From a bacterium BMS3Bbin09 (GTDB lineage: Bacteria; Nitrospirota; Thermodesulfovibrionia; UBA6902), in NCBI GenBank assembly GCA_002897915.1, contig BDTS01000055.1, forward strand, positions 23,479 through 87,478: DNA of 64,000 nucleotides, written 5' to 3'. How positions within the stretch are numbered: the stretch's first letter is position 1; each line of letters starts with the position of its first letter. The position numbers were made by a program, and so were the translations under genes. The notes under the pieces were generated by a model. The model was not told the DNA's origin, made no database searches, and saw only the letters and a program-made list of their open reading frames with translations. Positions 5,931-37,091 of this stretch are shown here, piece after piece.

Positions 5931-8054
5931 TTACAAATCCGACTTTATTTTTATCAGGTACGCCTCTCCATCAGTAAAAAAAGGATCTCCAGTAAAATTG
6001 CGCCCTGATCCCGGTTTTACTAATTGCATTTTTTTGAAACTTTCAAGTTGTTGCGTTTGAACTAAATCGTTGTACAAGTAGTCCCTTTCAGTATCGATGT
6101 CCGGACTGATTCTATGGGTAATACCCCACTTGACCCCGGCATCGAAACTTGCTGATCCGACATATATGGCATTACCGCTATTGCTTACATATTTTGTCTT
6201 CCAGAATCTAACGTGATGTCTTGTATGGGCAACATTGGTATCCGACGGTTTTTCAAAGGCGAAGTCATTTGTCTGTGCATTCCAGAACAAAGGGGTAACC
6301 GGCGCGGTGGGATATGGTTTATTGAATAAAGCCTCTTTGTATATCTTTGCAAATGATCGAAAACCGGGTGTGTCGGCAAGGAACCAGCCCGCATCCTGAA
6401 TGGATTTGATAAACTGCCTGTCGTTTCCTGCAATGACAATGATATTTATCGGATTCTGTGCCCTGCCAAGGAGGGTTTCTGTATATTTCATATGATCATC
6501 CACAAAAATATCCTGTGCATGATTTACACTTTCATACCCATGCCCGGAATGCGGCATCAGAAGCCCCGGATTGTACCGGCCCGCATAACCGGCATAAAAT
6601 ACGAGCGAAGAAAGGACCAACACTGCCGGTACATATTTTAACTTCCCTTTGGACAACGAAGTTGTTGCGCAAGAGTCAGCTGGTTGCAGATATTTGGAGA
6701 GACTGATTCCGATAAGCAGCCAGAGTGTGCCGATCAGATATCCACTCCACACATCACTTAGATAATGCACCCCCAGGTATAACCGGCTGAATCCGATAAG
6801 GAATATTAGTATGGTCCCGGCAAAAAAGAGATTTATCCGCGACTTCCATTTTGTTGCGCAGCTTATAAGTATGTATATGATAAAACCGTAAAATGAAACA
6901 GCGGCAGTCGCATGCCCGCTGGGAAAAGAAAAAGAATGTTCGGCATATACCTGCCATTCCGGGCGAGGACGGTGGAAGGCGATCTTTCCGAGCATGGTAA
7001 ATATTTCACTTCCTGCAAAAGACAGAAAGAAGGGGACAATATACCATCGCTTTCCTGTTATCCATAATGTCCCGGCTATCGCAGCCGTAAAACCGACTAC
7101 GACCTGCCACTTACCCAGCAATGTAATCCAGAGAAACAACCTTATGAGTTCAGGGGTCCGGAATAGGGGCATAAGATTCGCAATACGAATATCCGCTGCA
7201 ATAATGGGGTCGCCTGTCAGATAGTCTTCAACGATCCCTCCAAAAAGGACAAGGACATAGAAAAAAGCAATGCCGAGAAGTGTCAACGGCAGTCCGGTAA
7301 ACGAGTCCCTTGCGACGCGTTTCTCCAGGAACTGGAAAAAAGAAGGGTGCTTCCGAACCATGCTTTCAACATCGGGGTTTGTAATTACCGCATGTTTGAT
7401 CGAGCGGCCGACTGATGCTGCAAAAGAAAATACCCGATGCCCATATTTCAGGACAGCCAGTTTTATGAGGTAAAGCGCCAGGAAAAAGAGGAAAAGGGCT
7501 GCCAGAAGAAACCCGATTCTGGAGAGCCACATCCGGGCCAGACTCAGGGACTGTGCAAAGACATAACCGGCAAGGATCCATTCAAATCCCCATCCAATAG
7601 CGCCAAGGATGTTCCAGAGCAAAAAAGTCCTTTGCCGCATTCTCACCGTCCCGGCGATAAAAGGCATGATCTCTTTTATTGACGGAACAAAGCGGCCCAG
7701 GAAAACGCTCTTTGCCCCATGTGCATCAAAAAAGGCCCGGGCCTTTTCAAAATGTTCCTGCTTTAAGAACCAGATACCTTTTTGCGCCCATTTGGATCCA
7801 TATTTTTTCCCAAGAAAATAATTAATATTATCTCCCAGAATGGCGCCGACGATGGCAAACCACAGCAGGTCCCCCAAGTCGAGATATCCAAAGGCGGACA
7901 TGGCCCCGAGAAGAAGAATGAGCGTTGAGCCGGGGAGAAACAGCCCCACAATGATTGTGGTTTCAAGCATGGCCGCGAAAAACGCGATCCAATATCCAAG
8001 AACCCCCAGGTGTTCGACTGCAGGTGTAATAATGTTGACAATATAATCAGTCAT
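5931..8054 (-). CDS. Triple-domain membrane protein: DedA/SNARE-associated domain + PAP2 phosphatase + LssY_C-like C-terminal domain
   Basis: The N-terminus carries DedA signatures (ETTIIVGLFLPGST, GRFVPSIKEIMPFIAG). The middle carries the PAP2 tripartite motif (KIAFHRPRPE, PSGHA, SRLYLGVHYLSDV). The C-terminal ~230 aa resemble the C-terminal domain of LssY-type PAP2 proteins; this last assignment is uncertain. Confidence 0.65.
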   Translation of the reverse strand: MTDYIVNIITPAVEHLGVLGYWIAFFAAMLETTIIVGLFLPGSTLILLLGAMSAFGYLDLGDLLWFAIVGAILGDNINYFLGKKYGSKWAQKGIWFLKQEHFEKARAFFDAHGAKSVFLGRFVPSIKEIMPFIAGTVRMRQRTFLLWNILGAIGWGFEWILAGYVFAQSLSLARMWLSRIGFLLAALFLFFLALYLIKLAVLKYGHRVFSFAASVGRSIKHAVITNPDVESMVRKHPSFFQFLEKRVARDSFTGLPLTLLGIAFFYVLVLFGGIVEDYLTGDPIIAADIRIANLMPLFRTPELIRLFLWITLLGKWQVVVGFTAAIAGTLWITGKRWYIVPFFLSFAGSEIFTMLGKIAFHRPRPEWQVYAEHSFSFPSGHATAAVSFYGFIIYILISCATKWKSRINLFFAGTILIFLIGFSRLYLGVHYLSDVWSGYLIGTLWLLIGISLSKYLQPADSCATTSLSKGKLKYVPAVLVLSSLVFYAGYAGRYNPGLLMPHSGHGYESVNHAQDIFVDDHMKYTETLLGRAQNPINIIVIAGNDRQFIKSIQDAGWFLADTPGFRSFAKIYKEALFNKPYPTAPVTPLFWNAQTNDFAFEKPSDTNVAHTRHHVRFWKTKYVSNSGNAIYVGSASFDAGVKWGITHRISPDIDTERDYLYNDLVQTQQLESFKKMQLVKPGSGRNFTGDPFFTDGEAYLIKIKSDL

Positions 8055-11839: not shown

Positions 11840-12721
11840 ATGATCAAGAAAGTAAGGAAGGCCGTATTTCCAGCAGCAGGACTCGGCACCAGGTTTTTGC
11901 CCGCCACAAAGGCCTCCCCAAAAGAGATGCTGCCTATTGTTGACAAGCCGATGATCCAGTATGCGGTTGAAGAGGCCGAAGCATGCAATATTAAAGAGTT
12001 CATTGTGATCACCGGTAAATCAAAACGGGCAATAGAAGACCATTTTGATCATGCATTCGAACTTGAGCATACCCTGAAAAGAAAAGGCAAGGAGGCAATA
12101 CTTAAGGAGATCCAGCGTCTATCCAAGCACCAGTTCGCGTATATTCGCCAGGGGGCCCCTCTCGGGCTCGGCCACGCGATACTATGTTCAAAAGCCTTTG
12201 TAAATGATGAGCCTTTTGCTGTAATATTGAGCGACGACATAATAGACCCTGACGATAACCTTTTAGGTGAAATGATAAAGATATCTAACAAATACCAGGC
12301 AACTGTCCTTGCGCTCCAAAGGATCCCGAAATCAGAGATACATCGTTACGGGGTAATAGCAGGCAAGGAAATAGATAAAAACATATATAAAATATCCGAT
12401 ATGGTAGAGAAACCAAAGGCATCAGACGCACCGTCCGACCTTGCAATAATTGGCAGATACATACTTACGCCGGACATATTCAACATACTCGAAAAGACCT
12501 TGCCCGGAAAAGGCGGTGAGATACAGCTGACCGATGCATTAAAGACCCAGTTAAAGCGGAAACCCGTCTACGGCTATCTTTTTGAAGGCAGACGGTACGA
12601 CGGCGGTGACAAGGTCGGTTATCTAAAGGCTACTGTAGAACTTGCCCTTAAGAACCCTTCCCTCAAGGATGAGTTCAGAGAATATCTTGAATCAGTAATG
12701 AAAAGGAGCAATAATGGCTGA
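11840..12721 (+). CDS. galU: UTP--glucose-1-phosphate uridylyltransferase
   Basis: Start taken at the internal Met ([25 protein letters not shown]...), which carries the GalU N-terminal signature; the longer ORF from 11687 is unlikely. Confidence 0.85.
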
Positions 12722-15179
12722 AATAGATACATTAGAAGATCGTGAAATAGAGATCCCTGCATCACTTCCGATCCTTCCTGTGAGGGACGTTGTCATATTT
12801 CCGTATATGATACTTCCCCTTTTTGTAGGAAGAGACATGTCGATCAAGGCGATCGAACACGCGGCCGGTGATAACAAACTGATCCTTCTCGTTTCACAAA
12901 AAGATATTAACGTAGAGAACCCGACCAACGATGACATCTATAAAGTAGGTACCGTTGGGACTATACTAAGAATGCTCAAACTCCCTGACGGGCGGCTGAA
13001 GATACTCGTACAGGGTCTTACAAAGGCAATGGTCACCAAGTTTTCACAGTCGGAACCATATTACATTGGAGAGATAGAAAAGATAGTGGACAGTGAAGAG
13101 ATAGACACGAGCATAGAGATCGAGGCCCTGATGCGGAACGTCAAGGAGCTTGTCGATAAATCTCTGGCGCTCGGGAAATCATTTCTGCCCGACATCATAG
13201 TGCTTATAGAAAATATCGAAGAACCGGGAAGACTCGCTGACCTGGTAGCATCGAATCTCGGGCTAAAAGCAGAACAGGCTCAGGAACTGCTCGAGGAGAG
13301 GGACCCATACGAAAGACTGAAGAAAATAAGCGATATACTTAGCCGGGAGGTCGAGCTGCTTCTGGTGCAGCAAAAGATACAGTCCGACGTTAAGGGCGAA
13401 ATAGACAAGACCCAGCGTGAGTACTTCCTCAGAGAACAATTGAAGGCGATCCAGAAAGAGCTCGGTGAGATAGACGAAAAGACCGAGGAGATCATGGACC
13501 TGCGTAAAAAAATAGAAAAGGTAAAGATGCCCGAAAAGGTCGAAAAAGAGGCGATCAAACAGATCAACCGCCTCGAAAAAATGCATCCTGACAGCGCTGA
13601 AGCTGGAACGATCAGGACATATGTAGACTGGCTGATAGAGTTACCGTGGTCAAAAAGCACCAAGGATAAACTGGACATAAAACGGGCCAAGAAGATACTT
13701 GACGAAGACCATTACGACCTCGAGAAGGTAAAAGAGCGTATCCTTGAATATCTCGGCGTAAGAAAGCTTAAAGACAAGATGAAGGGCCCCATCCTCTGCT
13801 TTGTGGGCCCCCCCGGCGTAGGCAAGACCTCGCTCGGGAAGTCCATTGCCAGGGCAATGGGAAGGGAGTTCTACAGAATGTCCCTCGGCGGAATGAGAGA
13901 CGAGGCCGAGATCAGAGGGCATAGAAGAACATATGTCGGCGCAATGCCCGGCAGGGTCATTCAGGGTATCAAGACATCTGGACAGAATAATCCGGTCTTT
14001 ATGCTTGACGAGGTGGACAAGATAGGTATGGACTTCAGGGGCGACCCCGCATCTGCCCTGCTCGAGGTGCTCGATCCGGAACAGAACTTTGCATTCGGGG
14101 ACCACTATCTGGGTGTTCCTTTTGACCTGAGCAATGTTATGTTCATAACAACCGCGAATCAGATGGACCCGATCCCCAGTCCCCTGAGGGACAGGATGGA
14201 AGTACTTTACCTCTCCGGTTACACAGCTGAAGAAAAGATCGGGATAGCAAAGAACTTTCTGATCCCGAAACAGCTGGATGAACACGGTATCACCGAAAAG
14301 AACATAAAGATAAACGACAACGCCCTGCTGCAGGTCATAACCAATTACACGATCGAGGCGGGCGTAAGAAACCTCGAGCGTGAGATAGCGCATCTCTGCC
14401 GCAAGGTAGCGAGAAAAACAGCCGAGGGTCATGTCAGAAAATATGTGATCGCGGAGAAAAATCTTTCGAAATATCTCGGAGTACCAAAATTCCTTCCCGA
14501 GGAAGAGATAAAGAAAGACGAGGTAGGACTCTCGACCGGTCTCGCATGGACAGAAGCAGGCGGAGACATTATTTATATCGAAGCTACAATAATGAAGGGC
14601 AAAGGCGGGCTGACCCTCACGGGACAGCTTGGAGATGTGATGCAAGAGTCCGCGCACGCGGCCAGAAGTTATATCCGCTCCAAGGCCAAGTTCCTCGGCA
14701 TAAGCAACTCCATGTTCTCAAACAATGATATACATATACACGTCCCTGCCGGAGCGATCCCAAAAGACGGTCCCTCAGCCGGCATTACCATAGCCACCGC
14801 CCTGGCCTCCGCCTTTTCAGGCAAGCCTGTTCGGAAAAGCATAGCCATGACCGGAGAGGTCACGCTGCGCGGGAACGTGCTGCCGATAGGAGGGCTGAAA
14901 GAAAAGACCCTTGCGGCAAAGAGAATGGGCATTAAGACGGTGATCATCCCGAAGAGAAATGAGAAGGATCTTGAAGACATTCCAAAATATATCAAGAAGG
15001 ATATGCAGTTCATACCGGTTGAGACCATGGACGAGGTACTTAAGTATGCCCTTAAGACCCCGTCCAAAGCTAAGACAAAGACTAAAGCCAAGGCAAAGCC
15101 AAAGACCAAAGCCAAAGCAAAACCTAAAGCTAAAACAAAGGCTAAACCAAAAGCTAAGGTCAAGAAGAAAAAGAAATAA
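12714..15179 (+). CDS. lon: ATP-dependent Lon protease (LonA) with a ~40-aa C-terminal K/A/P/T-repeat basic tail
   Basis: It has the LonA N-domain, a AAA+ module (GPPGVGKTS) and an S16 Ser-Lys protease domain (DGPSAGIT). The C-terminus ends with [37 protein letters not shown] (nt ~15060-15176). The ATG overlaps the galU stop (ATGGCTGA). Confidence 0.95.
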
Positions 15180-15189
15180 TTATATGTAA

Positions 15190-15209
15190 GGGCACGGCAT
15201 GCCGTGCCC
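15190..15209 (+). terminator. Perfect 20-bp GC-rich palindrome GGGCACGGCATGCCGTGCCC downstream of lon (a hairpin with no U-tract)
   Basis: It is self-complementary with a 9-bp stem and 2-nt loop. This is copy 1 of a repeated element (see the copy at 36332-36362). Confidence 0.4.
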
Positions 15210-15240
15210 CTACTCTCTTTGTCCCCTATCTCCAAACATT

Positions 15241-16200
15241 ATGCAACTTTCAAAAATTGGTGAGTTCGGCCTAATAAAAAATATCCGGACCAGATGCAAA
15301 AATTCTTCACCGGATATTCTCACCGGTATAGGTGATGACGCTGCCGCAGTTAAAACCATCCGTGGCAAGGGCCTTTTCACATCAGATATCCTGATCGAAG
15401 GCACGCATTTCGACCTTTCACTGACAACGTTCTATCAACTCGGATGGAAGTTCCTTGCGATAAATATCAGCGATATCTTCGCAATGGGCGGAAGGCCCGA
15501 TTATTTCATCGCGGGTCTGGGCATTCCCTCTGCATGCAGGTCCCGTGACATAGACGAACTCTATTCCGGGATACTGGATATTGCCCGGAAGTTCAACGTA
15601 AAGATCATAGGCGGGGACACCTGCTCATCCGAACGCGGACTTGTATTAAGCGGTACACTTATCGGAAGTGGAAAAAAGATAATAACACGTTCTACTGCCA
15701 GGCCTGGTGACGGTATCTTTGTAACAAAGACACTGGGCGATTCAGCCATGGGACTCGAACTATTAAAAAAGGGGGGTAAAAAAGTTCAGAGCTTCTCCAA
15801 TTTTACCCCGCGTTTAAAGCTCATAAAGCGACATCTGATGCCGGAACCTGCCTTGATCAGGAATACTTCAAGGATAACCTCCATGATCGATACAAGTGAC
15901 GGACTGTTTTTGGACCTGGGCCACATATGCGACGAGAGCCATATTGGGGCGCTGATCTACAGCGACGATGTGCCCGTGTCACCGGCGCTCGCAGCAGAGG
16001 CAAAAACAGCGGGAAAGGACCCGCTCGAATTCGCGTTAAAAGGCGGAGAAGATTATGCCCTGCTTTTCACGGCTCCGAAGAATATCAGGACAAGGGCGTT
16101 CAGAATCGGAGAAATGATCGAAAGAGGCCTTTACATAATAGATTCCGATGGTAAGAAAAAACCCTTCAAGGCGGAAGGGTACGAGCATTTCAAAAAATAA
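15241..16200 (+). CDS. thiL: Thiamine-monophosphate kinase (AIR-synthase-related / PurM-like fold)
   Basis: The N-terminus matches ThiL (GEFGLIKNI ... GIGDDAAAV) with a PurM-like C-domain. The start is set at the internal ATG (MQLSKIGEF) downstream of the palindrome. Confidence 0.6.
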   Translation: MQLSKIGEFGLIKNIRTRCKNSSPDILTGIGDDAAAVKTIRGKGLFTSDILIEGTHFDLSLTTFYQLGWKFLAINISDIFAMGGRPDYFIAGLGIPSACRSRDIDELYSGILDIARKFNVKIIGGDTCSSERGLVLSGTLIGSGKKIITRSTARPGDGIFVTKTLGDSAMGLELLKKGGKKVQSFSNFTPRLKLIKRHLMPEPALIRNTSRITSMIDTSDGLFLDLGHICDESHIGALIYSDDVPVSPALAAEAKTAGKDPLEFALKGGEDYALLFTAPKNIRTRAFRIGEMIERGLYIIDSDGKKKPFKAEGYEHFKK

Positions 16201-30688: not shown

Positions 30689-30710
30689 GCATCAGTTATA
30701 ACAAATTAAA

Positions 30711-30740
30711 AGGGCCCCGCAATGCGGGGCCCTTTTTTAA
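30711..30740 (+). terminator. Rho-independent terminator downstream of the PpiC gene
   Basis: The stem GGGCCCCGC / GCGGGGCCC with loop AAT is followed by TTTTTT. Confidence 0.75.
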
Positions 30741-31668: not shown

Positions 31669-31721
31669 CGTATAGCGTTTTATCCATAATGACTCCGTCA
31701 CTACGGATAAAACGCTATACG
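31669..31721. repeat. Perfect 17-bp inverted repeat CGTATAGCGTTTTATCC / GGATAAAACGCTATACG with a 19-nt spacer
   Basis: Read directly from the sequence. It lies between the recombinase fragment and the antitoxin gene, and has no canonical attC R'/R'' boxes. Confidence 0.85.
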
Positions 31722-35399: not shown

Positions 35400-37091
35400 T
35401 TAGACACTTTTTAAATATTCCAGCACCTTTGAAGGGGCGAGCCTGTCCGTCTCTTTTGTCTTTCTTGATTTAACCTCGACCACTCCTTCTTTGAGACCCT
35501 TTTTGCCGATAACCACCTGCCACGGTATCCCGAGCAGGTCGGCATCCTTGAATTTAACGCCGGGCCTCTCGTCCCGATCATCCATGAGCACATCGATACC
35601 CGCATTGATCAGGTCATTATATAGTGTATCGGCTATGCTCAGGACATCATCTTCGGAGCCAAGCGGAATGATCTCTACATCAAATGGTGAGATACTCGAT
35701 GGCCATATTATTCCATCCTTGTCATTGTTCTGCTCGATAGCAGCCGCAGCTATACGAGCAGGACCGATGCCGTAGCTCCCCATTATGATAGTCTCTTCTT
35801 TTCCATTCTCGTCCAGGTACACAGCCTTAAGCGGTTTGGAATATTTTGTGCCGAGCTTAAAAATATTGCCGATCTCTATTACATTTTCAGCTGTTAACGG
35901 ACCGCCGCACTTTGAACAGGTGTCCCCCTGCCCCGCAATATGGATGTCATGCCATTCGGCCGTAAAATGCTCGCCCGGTTTGATGCCCCTTGTATGAAAA
36001 CCTGCTTTGTTCGCGCCTGCAATATAGACACCTTCTTTCAATGATACGTCTGCAATGATCTTAATGTCCCTGTTATTGGGACCGATAAAACCAGCCTCGA
36101 CACAAAGTATCTCTTTGACCTCGTCTTTTTGCGCGGGTCTGAATTCACCCGTTATCCTTTGCAGCTTCTTTTCATGGAGCTCCTGGTCACCCCTCACCAA
36201 GGCGAGAAATGGCCCGTCATCGCCAATCAATAAAAGACTCTTTATAAAACATGACGGGGCCTCTTTCAAAAAGTTCGAGACCTCGGCGACCGTCCTTTTT
36301 TCGGGTGTTTCAACATCTTCCATTTCATTTTGTACGGGCACGGCATGTCGTGCCCCTACTATTTGTTGGGACGGGACTGATAGCGCCAACTCAACGTTTG
36401 CTGAATAGCCGCACTTATCACAAAGCACAACAGTATCTTCACCAGCGGGGCTTGGCGCCATAAACTCATGCGCAGTTGCACCACCCATCATTCCGGGGTC
36501 GCTTTCAACCTGAAGAAATTTCAGACCGCATCTTTCGAATATTTTATGGTAGGCCCCTGCATGTTTCTGATAATTTATTTCGAGACCGGCCTCGTCCCTG
36601 TCAAAGCTGTAACTGTCTTTCATCGTGAACTCACGCGTCCTCAATATCCCGCTCTTTGGTCTGGCCTCGTCTCTGAACTTTGTCTGTATCTGATACCAGG
36701 TCTGCGGCAGGTCCCTGTAGGAACTTATCTCCATCGATGCAAGCCAGGTAATGATCTCTTCATGGGTCATTCCAAGACACATATCTCTTCCGCCCCTATC
36801 CTTCAGCCTGAACATCTCATCCCCGATCTCGTCCCACCTTCCGGTTTTTTCCCATATCTCGGACGGATGAAGGCAGGGCATCGATATTTCCTGCGCGCCG
36901 ATCGCATTCATTTCTTCCCTGATAATATTGTTTATCTTTTCCATGATCCTTAATGCCAGCGGAAGATAAATATAGAGACCGGCCGCGAGCTGCCTCACAT
37001 AACCGGCACGAACCATCAGTATATGGCTTATGGCCTCGGCATCGGCAGGCGCCTCACGTAATGTTGGAATAAAGATATTCGAAAACCGCAT
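35400..37091 (-). CDS. proS: Proline--tRNA ligase (bacterial type)
   Basis: It has class II aaRS motifs, a ProRS catalytic core and a C-terminal anticodon-binding domain. A palindromic repeat lies in frame at 36332-36362. Confidence 0.95.
   Translation of the reverse strand: MRFSNIFIPTLREAPADAEAISHILMVRAGYVRQLAAGLYIYLPLALRIMEKINNIIREEMNAIGAQEISMPCLHPSEIWEKTGRWDEIGDEMFRLKDRGGRDMCLGMTHEEIITWLASMEISSYRDLPQTWYQIQTKFRDEARPKSGILRTREFTMKDSYSFDRDEAGLEINYQKHAGAYHKIFERCGLKFLQVESDPGMMGGATAHEFMAPSPAGEDTVVLCDKCGYSANVELALSVPSQQIVGARHAVPVQNEMEDVETPEKRTVAEVSNFLKEAPSCFIKSLLLIGDDGPFLALVRGDQELHEKKLQRITGEFRPAQKDEVKEILCVEAGFIGPNNRDIKIIADVSLKEGVYIAGANKAGFHTRGIKPGEHFTAEWHDIHIAGQGDTCSKCGGPLTAENVIEIGNIFKLGTKYSKPLKAVYLDENGKEETIIMGSYGIGPARIAAAAIEQNNDKDGIIWPSSISPFDVEIIPLGSEDDVLSIADTLYNDLINAGIDVLMDDRDERPGVKFKDADLLGIPWQVVIGKKGLKEGVVEVKSRKTKETDRLAPSKVLEYLKSV
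36332..36362. repeat. Copy 2 of the GGGCACGGCATG(C/T)CGTGCCC palindromic element, in frame inside proS (encodes GARHAVP)
   Basis: 28 of 31 nt are identical to 15186-15216 including flanks (GTA.GGGCACGGCATG.CGTGCCCCTACT.T). Confidence 0.85.

Follow-up and report, generated by a model that had tools for sequence, protein, structure and literature searches.

The window analyzed here, a 64-kb stretch of a deep-sea Nitrospirota MAG, harbors two copies of a short GC-rich palindromic hairpin. One lies in the spacer between lon and a thiL-like gene, and the other lies within proS. The positions of both copies and of the genes that surround them are given in Table 1, along with one hairpin of a different class that is encoded in the proS of a relative.

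Table 1. Coordinates of the two hairpin copies, their host genes and a related locus.
Feature	Position	Strand	Description
lon	12714..15179	plus	ORF; 821 aa, Lys/Ala/Pro-rich C-terminal tail; stop codon 7 nt before copy 1
Copy 1 (probable REP)	15186..15213	minus	28-nt unit in the lon-thiL spacer; perfect 20-nt palindrome at 15190-15209
thiL-like gene (AIRS-domain protein)	15241..16200	plus	ATG 27 nt past copy 1; PF00586 AIRS in the orthologous locus
proS	35400..37091	minus	bacterial-type prolyl-tRNA synthetase with INS domain, 563 aa; PF00587, PF04073, PF03129; E = 1.5e-152 to structure 2J3L
proS linker, residues 237-261 (LSVPSQQIVGARHAVPVQNEMEDVE)	36309..36383	minus	joins the catalytic core (..CGYSANVELA) to the INS editing domain (TPEKRTV..)
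Copy 2 (probable REP)	36332..36359	minus (= coding strand)	in frame in proS as V-G-A-R-H-A-V-P-V
Second hairpin class in proS of P0049	L167 10800-10880		also in P0021, P0098, P0099, P0105

The core of copy 1 is the 20-nt sequence GGGCACGGCATGCCGTGCCC, which is a perfect palindrome, as an initial reading of the sequence without database searches (the sequence-only reading) had stated. It occurs a second time at 36336-36355 as GGCATGTC, with one mismatch. Matches to the 20-mer were absent from all 100 dinucleotide-preserving shuffles of the window. Direct reading of the 31-nt stretches GTAAGGGCACGGCATGCCGTGCCCCTACTCT and GTACGGGCACGGCATGTCGTGCCCCTACTAT also bore out the claim that the recurrence includes the flanks, with 28 of 31 positions identical. 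On the minus strand, copy 1 reads GTAG-GGGCACGGCATGCCGTGCCC-TTAC, and copy 2, for which this is the coding strand, reads GTAG-GGGCACGACATGCCGTGCCC-GTAC, with a single A.C mismatch beside the loop. GTAG directly abuts the stem in both copies, giving GTAGGGGCAC. A GTAG adjoining a stem is the signature of REPs and was overlooked by the sequence-only reading. Inverted-repeat detection extended the pairing to 28 nt (GTA-x-stem-loop-stem-x-TAC), and the conserved unit is likewise 28 nt, comprising a foot, the 20-mer and a second foot. Beyond the feet the copies have only a T after CTAC in common, indicating that the similarity essentially stops at the feet. RNA folds of the 28-mers are predicted at -17.8 kcal/mol for copy 1 and -17.7 kcal/mol for copy 2 (z = -4.3 and -3.8), consistent with the stable hairpin proposed earlier for the lon-thiL spacer. 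The base of the stem is GGGCAC...GTGCCC in both copies and provides three consecutive G-C pairs. Only one foot is perfect in each copy; the other is degenerate and reads GTAA in copy 1 and GTAC in copy 2. The intact GTAG is on the minus strand in both cases, and the plus-strand GC skew is negative over most of the window. By analogy, this orientation would be compatible with lagging-strand-template activity as in IS200/IS605, although two copies prove nothing in this respect.

Other inverted repeats are present in the window. The longest, in an AT-rich stretch at 31669-31721, is a 25-nt repeat with 92% complementarity and a 3-nt spacer (CGTATAGCGTTTTATCCATAATGAC / GTCACTACGGATAAAACGCTATACG). 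A perfect 14-nt inverted repeat at 30708-30736 (AAAAGGGCCCCGCA / TGCGGGGCCCTTTT) resembles a bidirectional terminator.

The hairpin is not confined to this organism. The 20-mer was sought in one genome per prokaryotic species, allowing R/Y at both positions that close the loop, and at least 119 loci were found, versus a chance expectation, by arithmetic, of a few matches in 596 Gb. The hosts among the matches listed belong to more than 20 phyla, including Acidobacteriota, Chloroflexota, Planctomycetota, Omnitrophota, Cyanobacteriota, Pseudomonadota, Bacillota, Deinococcota and Nitrospirota, along with one Methanosarcinales bin, with some of the taxonomy taken from MAG bins that may include mis-binned contigs. 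Among the 132 copies listed, GTAG is found on the 5' side in 64 and CTAC on the 3' side in 76; both are found in 27 and neither in 19. At least one of the feet is thus directly at the stem in 113 of the 132 copies (86%), and no conservation was seen beyond the feet. A compensated loop-closure variant, GACATGTC, keeps the pairing. The same loci, among the matches listed, contain 70 further hairpins of the form GTAG-GGGC...GCCC-CTAC with other stems and loops, often clustered. Feet and a GGGC base combined with different stems correspond to the architecture of GTAG-tagged REPs (PMC3733652). No searchable paper contains the sequence of the 20-mer.

It could be argued that the two palindromes in the window are independent, convergent hairpins, or duplex sites of a dimeric protein, rather than one repeat. 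A perfect 20-bp palindrome, with GCATGC in its core, would also suit a dimeric DNA-binding protein or a restriction-modification system, and the window contains just two copies. However, the agreement between the copies includes the feet, the 20-mer occurs with GTAG/CTAC feet in distant phyla, the compensated variants retain pairing, and the feet and the GGGC base are all that members with different stems have in common. The same element also sits inside genes for RAYT transposases (see below). These observations make convergence or a duplex binding site highly improbable, in agreement with the sequence-only reading, which had argued against convergent hairpins on the basis of shared flanking bases.

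Several copies in other phyla also reside in genes. Of the 132 copies listed, 23 lie in frames without a stop for 60 codons or more in either direction, several of which are spurious. Pfam confirms an in-frame copy in a TrmD gene, where ..ERARHAVPLQ.. interrupts the domain. It likewise confirms host genes for a YgiQ-like radical-SAM protein, an AAA ATPase (with RGTACRAPT) and a PMT-family glycosyltransferase. The YgiQ-like gene, from a candidate division FCPU426 MAG (L031, ~6500-8000), has three hairpin inserts in the N-terminal domain (IVGARCLS..AVPLL, IVGAQQAAPLP and IRARHAVPLQ) and a full-length Pfam match. The 20-mer is also present in 21 IMG/VR viral contigs as 29 copies, mostly with feet, and one predicted viral contig (L157, 1606-7008) contains five exact 20-mers within 7.8 kb. 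No RAYT gene was found in the hairpin-bearing viral loci. The viral contigs could serve as transfer vehicles or could merely be invaded prophages.

In four loci (L034, L080, L106 and L119), copies are paired at a distance of 0.8-1.2 kb. The possibility that such pairs flank a RAYT was ruled out, as ordinary genes lie between them (pheS / rplT / infC, Rpn-like nuclease). In an Acidiferrales MAG (L034, 5484-6577), the hairpin occupies two intergenic gaps of apparent infC, rplT and pheS, as judged from translations. In an Oscillospiraceae MAG (L106, 859-2100), two double-foot copies flank an ORF for an apparent PD-(D/E)XK Rpn/YhgA-type nuclease or putative transposase, and the C-terminus of this ORF is also present as a truncated duplicate between the copies.

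A link to a transposase was found in other genomes. Clustering of the ORFs from the loci listed produced a small recurrent family (L021, L071, L062 and L116) that corresponds to RAYT, and tblastn with two of its members added L033; a Y1 transposase is therefore encoded in 5 of at least 119 loci. The largest ORF clusters (ABC ATPases, response regulators and SDRs) were dismissed as chance recurrences. The L021 protein matches PF01797 Y1_Tnp with 29 bits (cut-off 23) and NF047646 'REP-associated tyrosine transposase' with E = 8.5e-16 and 58 bits, the latter under the 80-bit equivalog cut-off. The L021 gene contains the full 28-mer, GTAGGGGCACGGCATGCCGTGCCCCTAC, in frame directly after the HUH motif (PNHVHGII). 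At this spot, most of the best 120 RAYT homologues have RGTACRAPT, nine have VGARHAVPL and others have VGAKNFSPL, in a set of candidates chosen by shared 5-mers, which favors matches with RGTACRAPT. Frame 3 of the 28-mer gives RGTACRAPT and frame 1 gives VGARHAVPL, with the DNA read for L021 only. The use of two frames of one 28-mer suggests that the nucleic acid, and not the peptide, is conserved. In a Planctomycetales MAG (L033, 4700-5230), the RAYT-like gene apparently ends exactly at an internal hairpin, GGGCACAGCATGCTGTGCCC, and a second GGGCACAGCATGCTGTGCCC hairpin lies ~170 bp downstream, as if an insertion or rearrangement had occurred between two REP copies.

The TnpA_REP proteins of subclass 2.4 (RAYT group 4 of Bertels) have NH[IFV]H, WQ and YIxNNP motifs and are scattered over many phyla (Quentin, Siguier, Chandler and Fichant 2018, PMC6006769). 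The REPs associated with this subclass have three basal G-C pairs and include long ones and double-foot ones, with 5' GT[AG]G and 3' C[TC]AC, and REPs are also found in frame inside tnpA_REP between HuH and Y (PMC6006769). The RAYTs that bear the hairpin have PNHVHGI, VWQRNYYEH and YIMDNP or YIAYNP, and may be placed in subclass 2.4 by these motifs and the in-gene REP rather than by phylogeny. The hairpins described here are like subclass 2.4 REPs in the three G-C pairs at the base of the stem and in having in-gene copies in RAYTs with NH[IV]H, WQ and YIxxNP. Unlike subclass 2.4 REPtrons, the window contains no tnpA_REP, and one foot is degenerate in each of its copies (PMC6006769).

Based on these results, both copies are very probably GTAG-tagged REPs of the three-G-C-base, double-foot type tied to subclass 2.4 RAYTs, which would have spread them, with copy 2 likely a neutral passenger. 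Several observations count against this reading. The copy number is low, with two copies in 64 kb and none in ~19 kb of extra flank, and 2 in ~83 kb is far under classic REP densities (>100 per genome). Each window copy has a single perfect foot, and tblastn detected no RAYT homologue in the 64-kb window. The expectation is that this genome would nevertheless encode a RAYT. The sequence-only reading had proposed a "REP- or MITE-like" mobile repeat, of which the REP part holds, given the GTAG feet and the 28-nt length, and the MITE part does not. MITEs are 70-300 bp, with IS terminal inverted repeats and a target-site duplication, whereas the unit here is 28 nt without terminal inverted repeats beyond the hairpin, and no target-site duplication is visible in the flanks of either window copy. 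Mobility would be conferred by a RAYT. To our knowledge, in vivo transposition of REPs by RAYTs has been demonstrated for no system.

Comparison to characterized systems helps to place the element. In the superfamily of GTAG REPs, some intragenic copies are in frame, and flexible linkers or loops are presumed to accommodate them (Di Nocera, De Gregorio and Rocco 2013, PMC3733652). The window element resembles these REPs in its short GC-rich stem-loop, terminal GTAG, compensated stem variants and families common to distant species, and also in the location of the copies, mostly after ORFs with some wholly inside ORFs in frame; the very low density is unlike them (PMC3733652). Intragenic in-frame residence is thus a documented, though uncommon, place for GTAG REPs. 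The REPtrons of E. coli, Stenotrophomonas and Marinomonas also combine GTAG with a hairpin, which in these systems is recognized on single-stranded DNA, and they offer a model for binding and cleavage (PMC3479197, PMC8266576). Recognition and cleavage that involve GTAG and the stem have been observed in vitro (PMC8266576). The stems and loops of those REPs differ from the ones described here, and E. coli REPs are bulged and strictly GTAG-dependent (PMC3479197, PMC8266576).

The window element is also similar to the Rickettsia palindromic elements (RPEs), in that a selfish palindrome resides in frame in essential genes. RPEs are roughly 100-150 bp and, unlike the window REP, are without a GTAG foot and without a known RAYT link. 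The likeness is one of behavior and not of membership.

The two copies appear to differ in age. The nearest relative has GTAGGGGCACGGCATGCCGTGCCCCTAC at the same lon-thiL site, identical to copy 1 at 27 of 28 positions and with both feet perfect, whereas the remaining spacer is identical at only 18 of 44 positions and includes an 11-nt indel. The Lon proteins of the two are 94% identical, and the relative is from the ENA sample that also gave a ProS sister without the proS copy. Since the lon copy is common to the nearest relative and the proS copy is not, copy 1 is, judged from these alignments, the older of the two. The contrast between 27 of 28 in the element and 18 of 44 in the spacer indicates that copy 1 is likely either constrained or homogenised. 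Such near-perfect conservation is not predicted by a purely neutral-passenger view and counts against it. No hairpin was found in 13 more distant lon-thiL loci from related metagenomes in which synteny is kept.

It is possible, if somewhat doubtful, that copy 1 has a function as RNA within the lon-thiL transcript, such as that of a 3'-end stabiliser or partial terminator, and is under selection regardless of how it arrived. In addition to the conservation of copy 1, a stable hairpin so close to the lon stop codon would fit this role, and REPs, most of which are located 3' of ORFs, have been connected with the stabilisation of mRNA and with termination (PMC3733652). However, copy 1 is not a canonical Rho-independent terminator; the tail, CTACTCTCTTTGTCCCC, lacks a T-run, and a terminator scan called no intrinsic terminator in 14900-15500. 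The 13 other lon-thiL loci do without the hairpin, and RAYT-dependent homogenisation or a recent shared origin would explain the conservation of copy 1 equally well. Copy 1 could plausibly act as a 3'-end protecting or attenuating hairpin.

The tail of Lon upstream of copy 1 is unusual. It comprises 60 residues (14985-15176), is rich in Lys, Ala, Pro and Thr, and recalls histone H1-like AKP repeats. No such tail is present in most Nitrospirota Lon homologues, which have lengths of 787-797 aa. About a dozen of the closest relatives are longer (803-831 aa), and of these only the nearest was seen to have the Lys-rich segment.

Copy 2 is read through in proS. As noted from the letters alone, it is in frame and encodes GARHAVP; the translation contains QQIVGARHAVPVQNE (IVGARHAVPVQ). 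The ProS sequence is a 100% match to that of 'bacterium BMS3Bbin09'. The identical protein has entries from NCBI, ENA and Logan assemblies, and other ENA assemblies include contigs with identical neighboring proteins, indicating that the in-frame copy is not a one-off assembly error. The best relatives of this ProS are annotated as Nitrospirae or Thermodesulfovibrionia-like MAGs. In the closest (P0002-P0005; 560 aa, 86-90% identity), PPAQTLSGGEEDWKMEDVETPEK stands in place of the VPSQQIVGARHAVPVQNEMEDVETPEK of the window ProS, in which ~11 codons replace ~8 with a net gain of 3 aa. The linker is 25 aa in the window ProS and 22 aa in most relatives. In a neighbor-joining tree built with the linker left out, the window ProS is the only tip of its own clade with the insert. 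The residues around GARHAVP are therefore an insertion relative to the closest orthologues, which supports the earlier suggestion that an in-frame insertion was tolerated. The location in a linker or insertion-domain region was also correctly anticipated. Alignment to the solved ProRS structures 2J3L and 5ZNJ revealed 5 extra residues exactly at VGARH, and alignment to the INS-less ProRS 2I4L breaks at approximately residue 222; together, these place the element at the junction of the catalytic core and the INS domain. An AlphaFold model of ProS based on a 24-sequence alignment was unusable (mean pLDDT 53), and the solved structures were used instead.

The peptide VGARHAVPV could in principle be selected at the protein level in ProRS, with the palindrome as a by-product, and related ProS proteins do have similar peptides, such as VGARRAVPLQ and VGARCAMPLQ. 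However, the closest ProS relatives lack the peptide, and the same DNA is read in different ways in different genes: RAYT and AAA-ATPase genes yield RGTACRAPT, TrmD and radical-SAM genes yield ARHAVP, and two open frames, possibly not genuine genes, yield GHGMPCPY. Moreover, the ProS inserts VGAIHELPLQ, VGANGRSPLQ and GQAQGPAPT are unrelated as peptides and have only the foot codons in common. Selection for the peptide is thus extremely improbable.

Hairpins recur in the ProS linker of Nitrospirota. The linker is a plain 22 aa in 64 of 113 related ProS sequences, and approximately 20 of the 113 have hairpin-coded inserts, which fall in at least three separate clades and represent more than 10 different stems. 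The insert peptides include VGARRAVPLQ, GALLAVPLQ, VGANGRSPLQ, VGAIHELPLQ, VGAIHEWPLQ, VGTRPAVPLQ, VGRAVPLQ, VGARCAMPLQ and VGATPCGCTGQAQGPAPT. Four inserts were confirmed at the DNA level: GTAGGGGCAATTCATGAATTGCCCCTAC in P0044, GTAGGGGCAAACGGCCGTTCGCCCCTAC in P0015, GCAGGGGCACGGCGCGCCGTGCCCCTGC in P0017 and a head-to-head dimer in P0059. The insertion points vary within the linker, and the GTAG foot is read as GTA-GGG-GC wherever the DNA was read; the neighboring reading frame of the foot would put a TAG stop in frame. A second, unrelated class of hairpin occupies the same linker in several relatives (Table 1). It consists of CCCCCCTTTGTCAAAGGGGGG and TCCCCCTTTGGAAAAGGGGGA units that encode NPPSPPFVKGGDL..SPPLEKGD.. 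and add up to 33 aa. All rare internal ProS insertions are confined to this linker. In contrast, for Lon, the single protein that served as the control, 120 homologues from the same phylum revealed neither motifs of this kind nor any rare internal insertion of at least 4 aa. In four loci with a hairpin-bearing proS (L121, L122, L124 and L125; 4.7-9.7 kb around the gene), no clear GTAG-foot hairpin was seen apart from the proS copy. No published description of this recurrence in the ProS linker was found.

Recurring hairpins in the linker are not predicted by a purely neutral-passenger view and count against it. The proS hairpin may instead be kept for a function, such as an mRNA pause at the boundary of the catalytic core and the INS domain or regulation of proS, or the linker may be a preferred landing site. 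In favor are the number of clades and stems that share one linker, the inserts confirmed in DNA, the arrival of an unrelated hairpin class at the same place, the lack of other clear GTAG-foot hairpins around the four proS genes, and the difference from Lon. Nonetheless, the hairpin is not required, as the plain linkers and the hairpin-free sisters of the window ProS reveal, and the differing insertion points argue against a fixed target site. A linker that tolerates all insertions, combined with purifying selection elsewhere, would also give recurrence, and hairpins within a clade may stem from one insertion followed by replacement in place. A retained function or a preferred landing site therefore seems unlikely. 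The recurrence may reflect a very permissive linker with purifying selection outside it, the replacement of an older hairpin in place, a preference for the site or the usefulness of an mRNA hairpin.

A broader possibility, which we likewise consider rather improbable, is that the junction of the ProRS core with the INS domain constitutes a true hotspot for hairpins in Nitrospirota, into which at least two unrelated hairpin families were repeatedly inserted, replaced and retained. In such a hotspot, the machinery of single-strand transposition would prefer the site, or the mRNA hairpin would be useful, for example as an inter-domain translational pause. The REP copy internal to RAYTs may also seed the same 28-mer in more than 20 phyla and viral contigs.

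For the preferred reading, in which the copies are REPs spread by a RAYT, the following scheme may be proposed from published work on TnpA_REP and IS200/IS605. The hairpin would form on single-stranded DNA, and the transposase would recognize GTAG and the stem, and cut and rejoin beside the hairpin, leading to copies at new sites. Copies would persist where harm is small. Copy 1 probably entered the lon-thiL spacer in a common ancestor with the nearest relative and would have remained almost unchanged since. In the lon transcript, copy 1 is predicted to form a hairpin of -18 kcal/mol without a U-run, which would fit 3'-end protection or attenuation better than a classical terminator. Copy 2 appears to be younger and may have entered, or partly replaced, the variable ProRS linker in the one open frame (GTA-GGG-GCA..), giving VGARHAVPV and, on balance, 3 additional residues. 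In ProRS, this copy most likely rides along as a neutral passenger.

Finally, the results have implications for the distribution and annotation of REPs. The survey of GTAG REPs covered ~80 species from 8 phyla, mostly Proteobacteria, and its text contains no match to 'Nitrospir' (PMC3733652). The range of a REP family known chiefly from Proteobacteria and Cyanobacteria extends to a deep-sea Nitrospirota MAG, and one 28-mer is common to very distant phyla and viral contigs and rides in frame in essential genes (proS and trmD). The presence of REPs in frame in genes, even inside the transposase gene, is already published, and the current understanding of REPs or RAYTs is unchanged. For annotation, VGARHAVPL, RGTACRAPT and GHGMPCPY in predicted proteins are footprints of a hairpin and not protein motifs. 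The recurrence in the ProS linker, with more than 10 hairpins versus none in the Lon control, is mildly new and is the part worth follow-up. The recurrent use of the ProRS linker provides a natural experiment that could reveal where in proteins selfish hairpins are tolerated or attracted.
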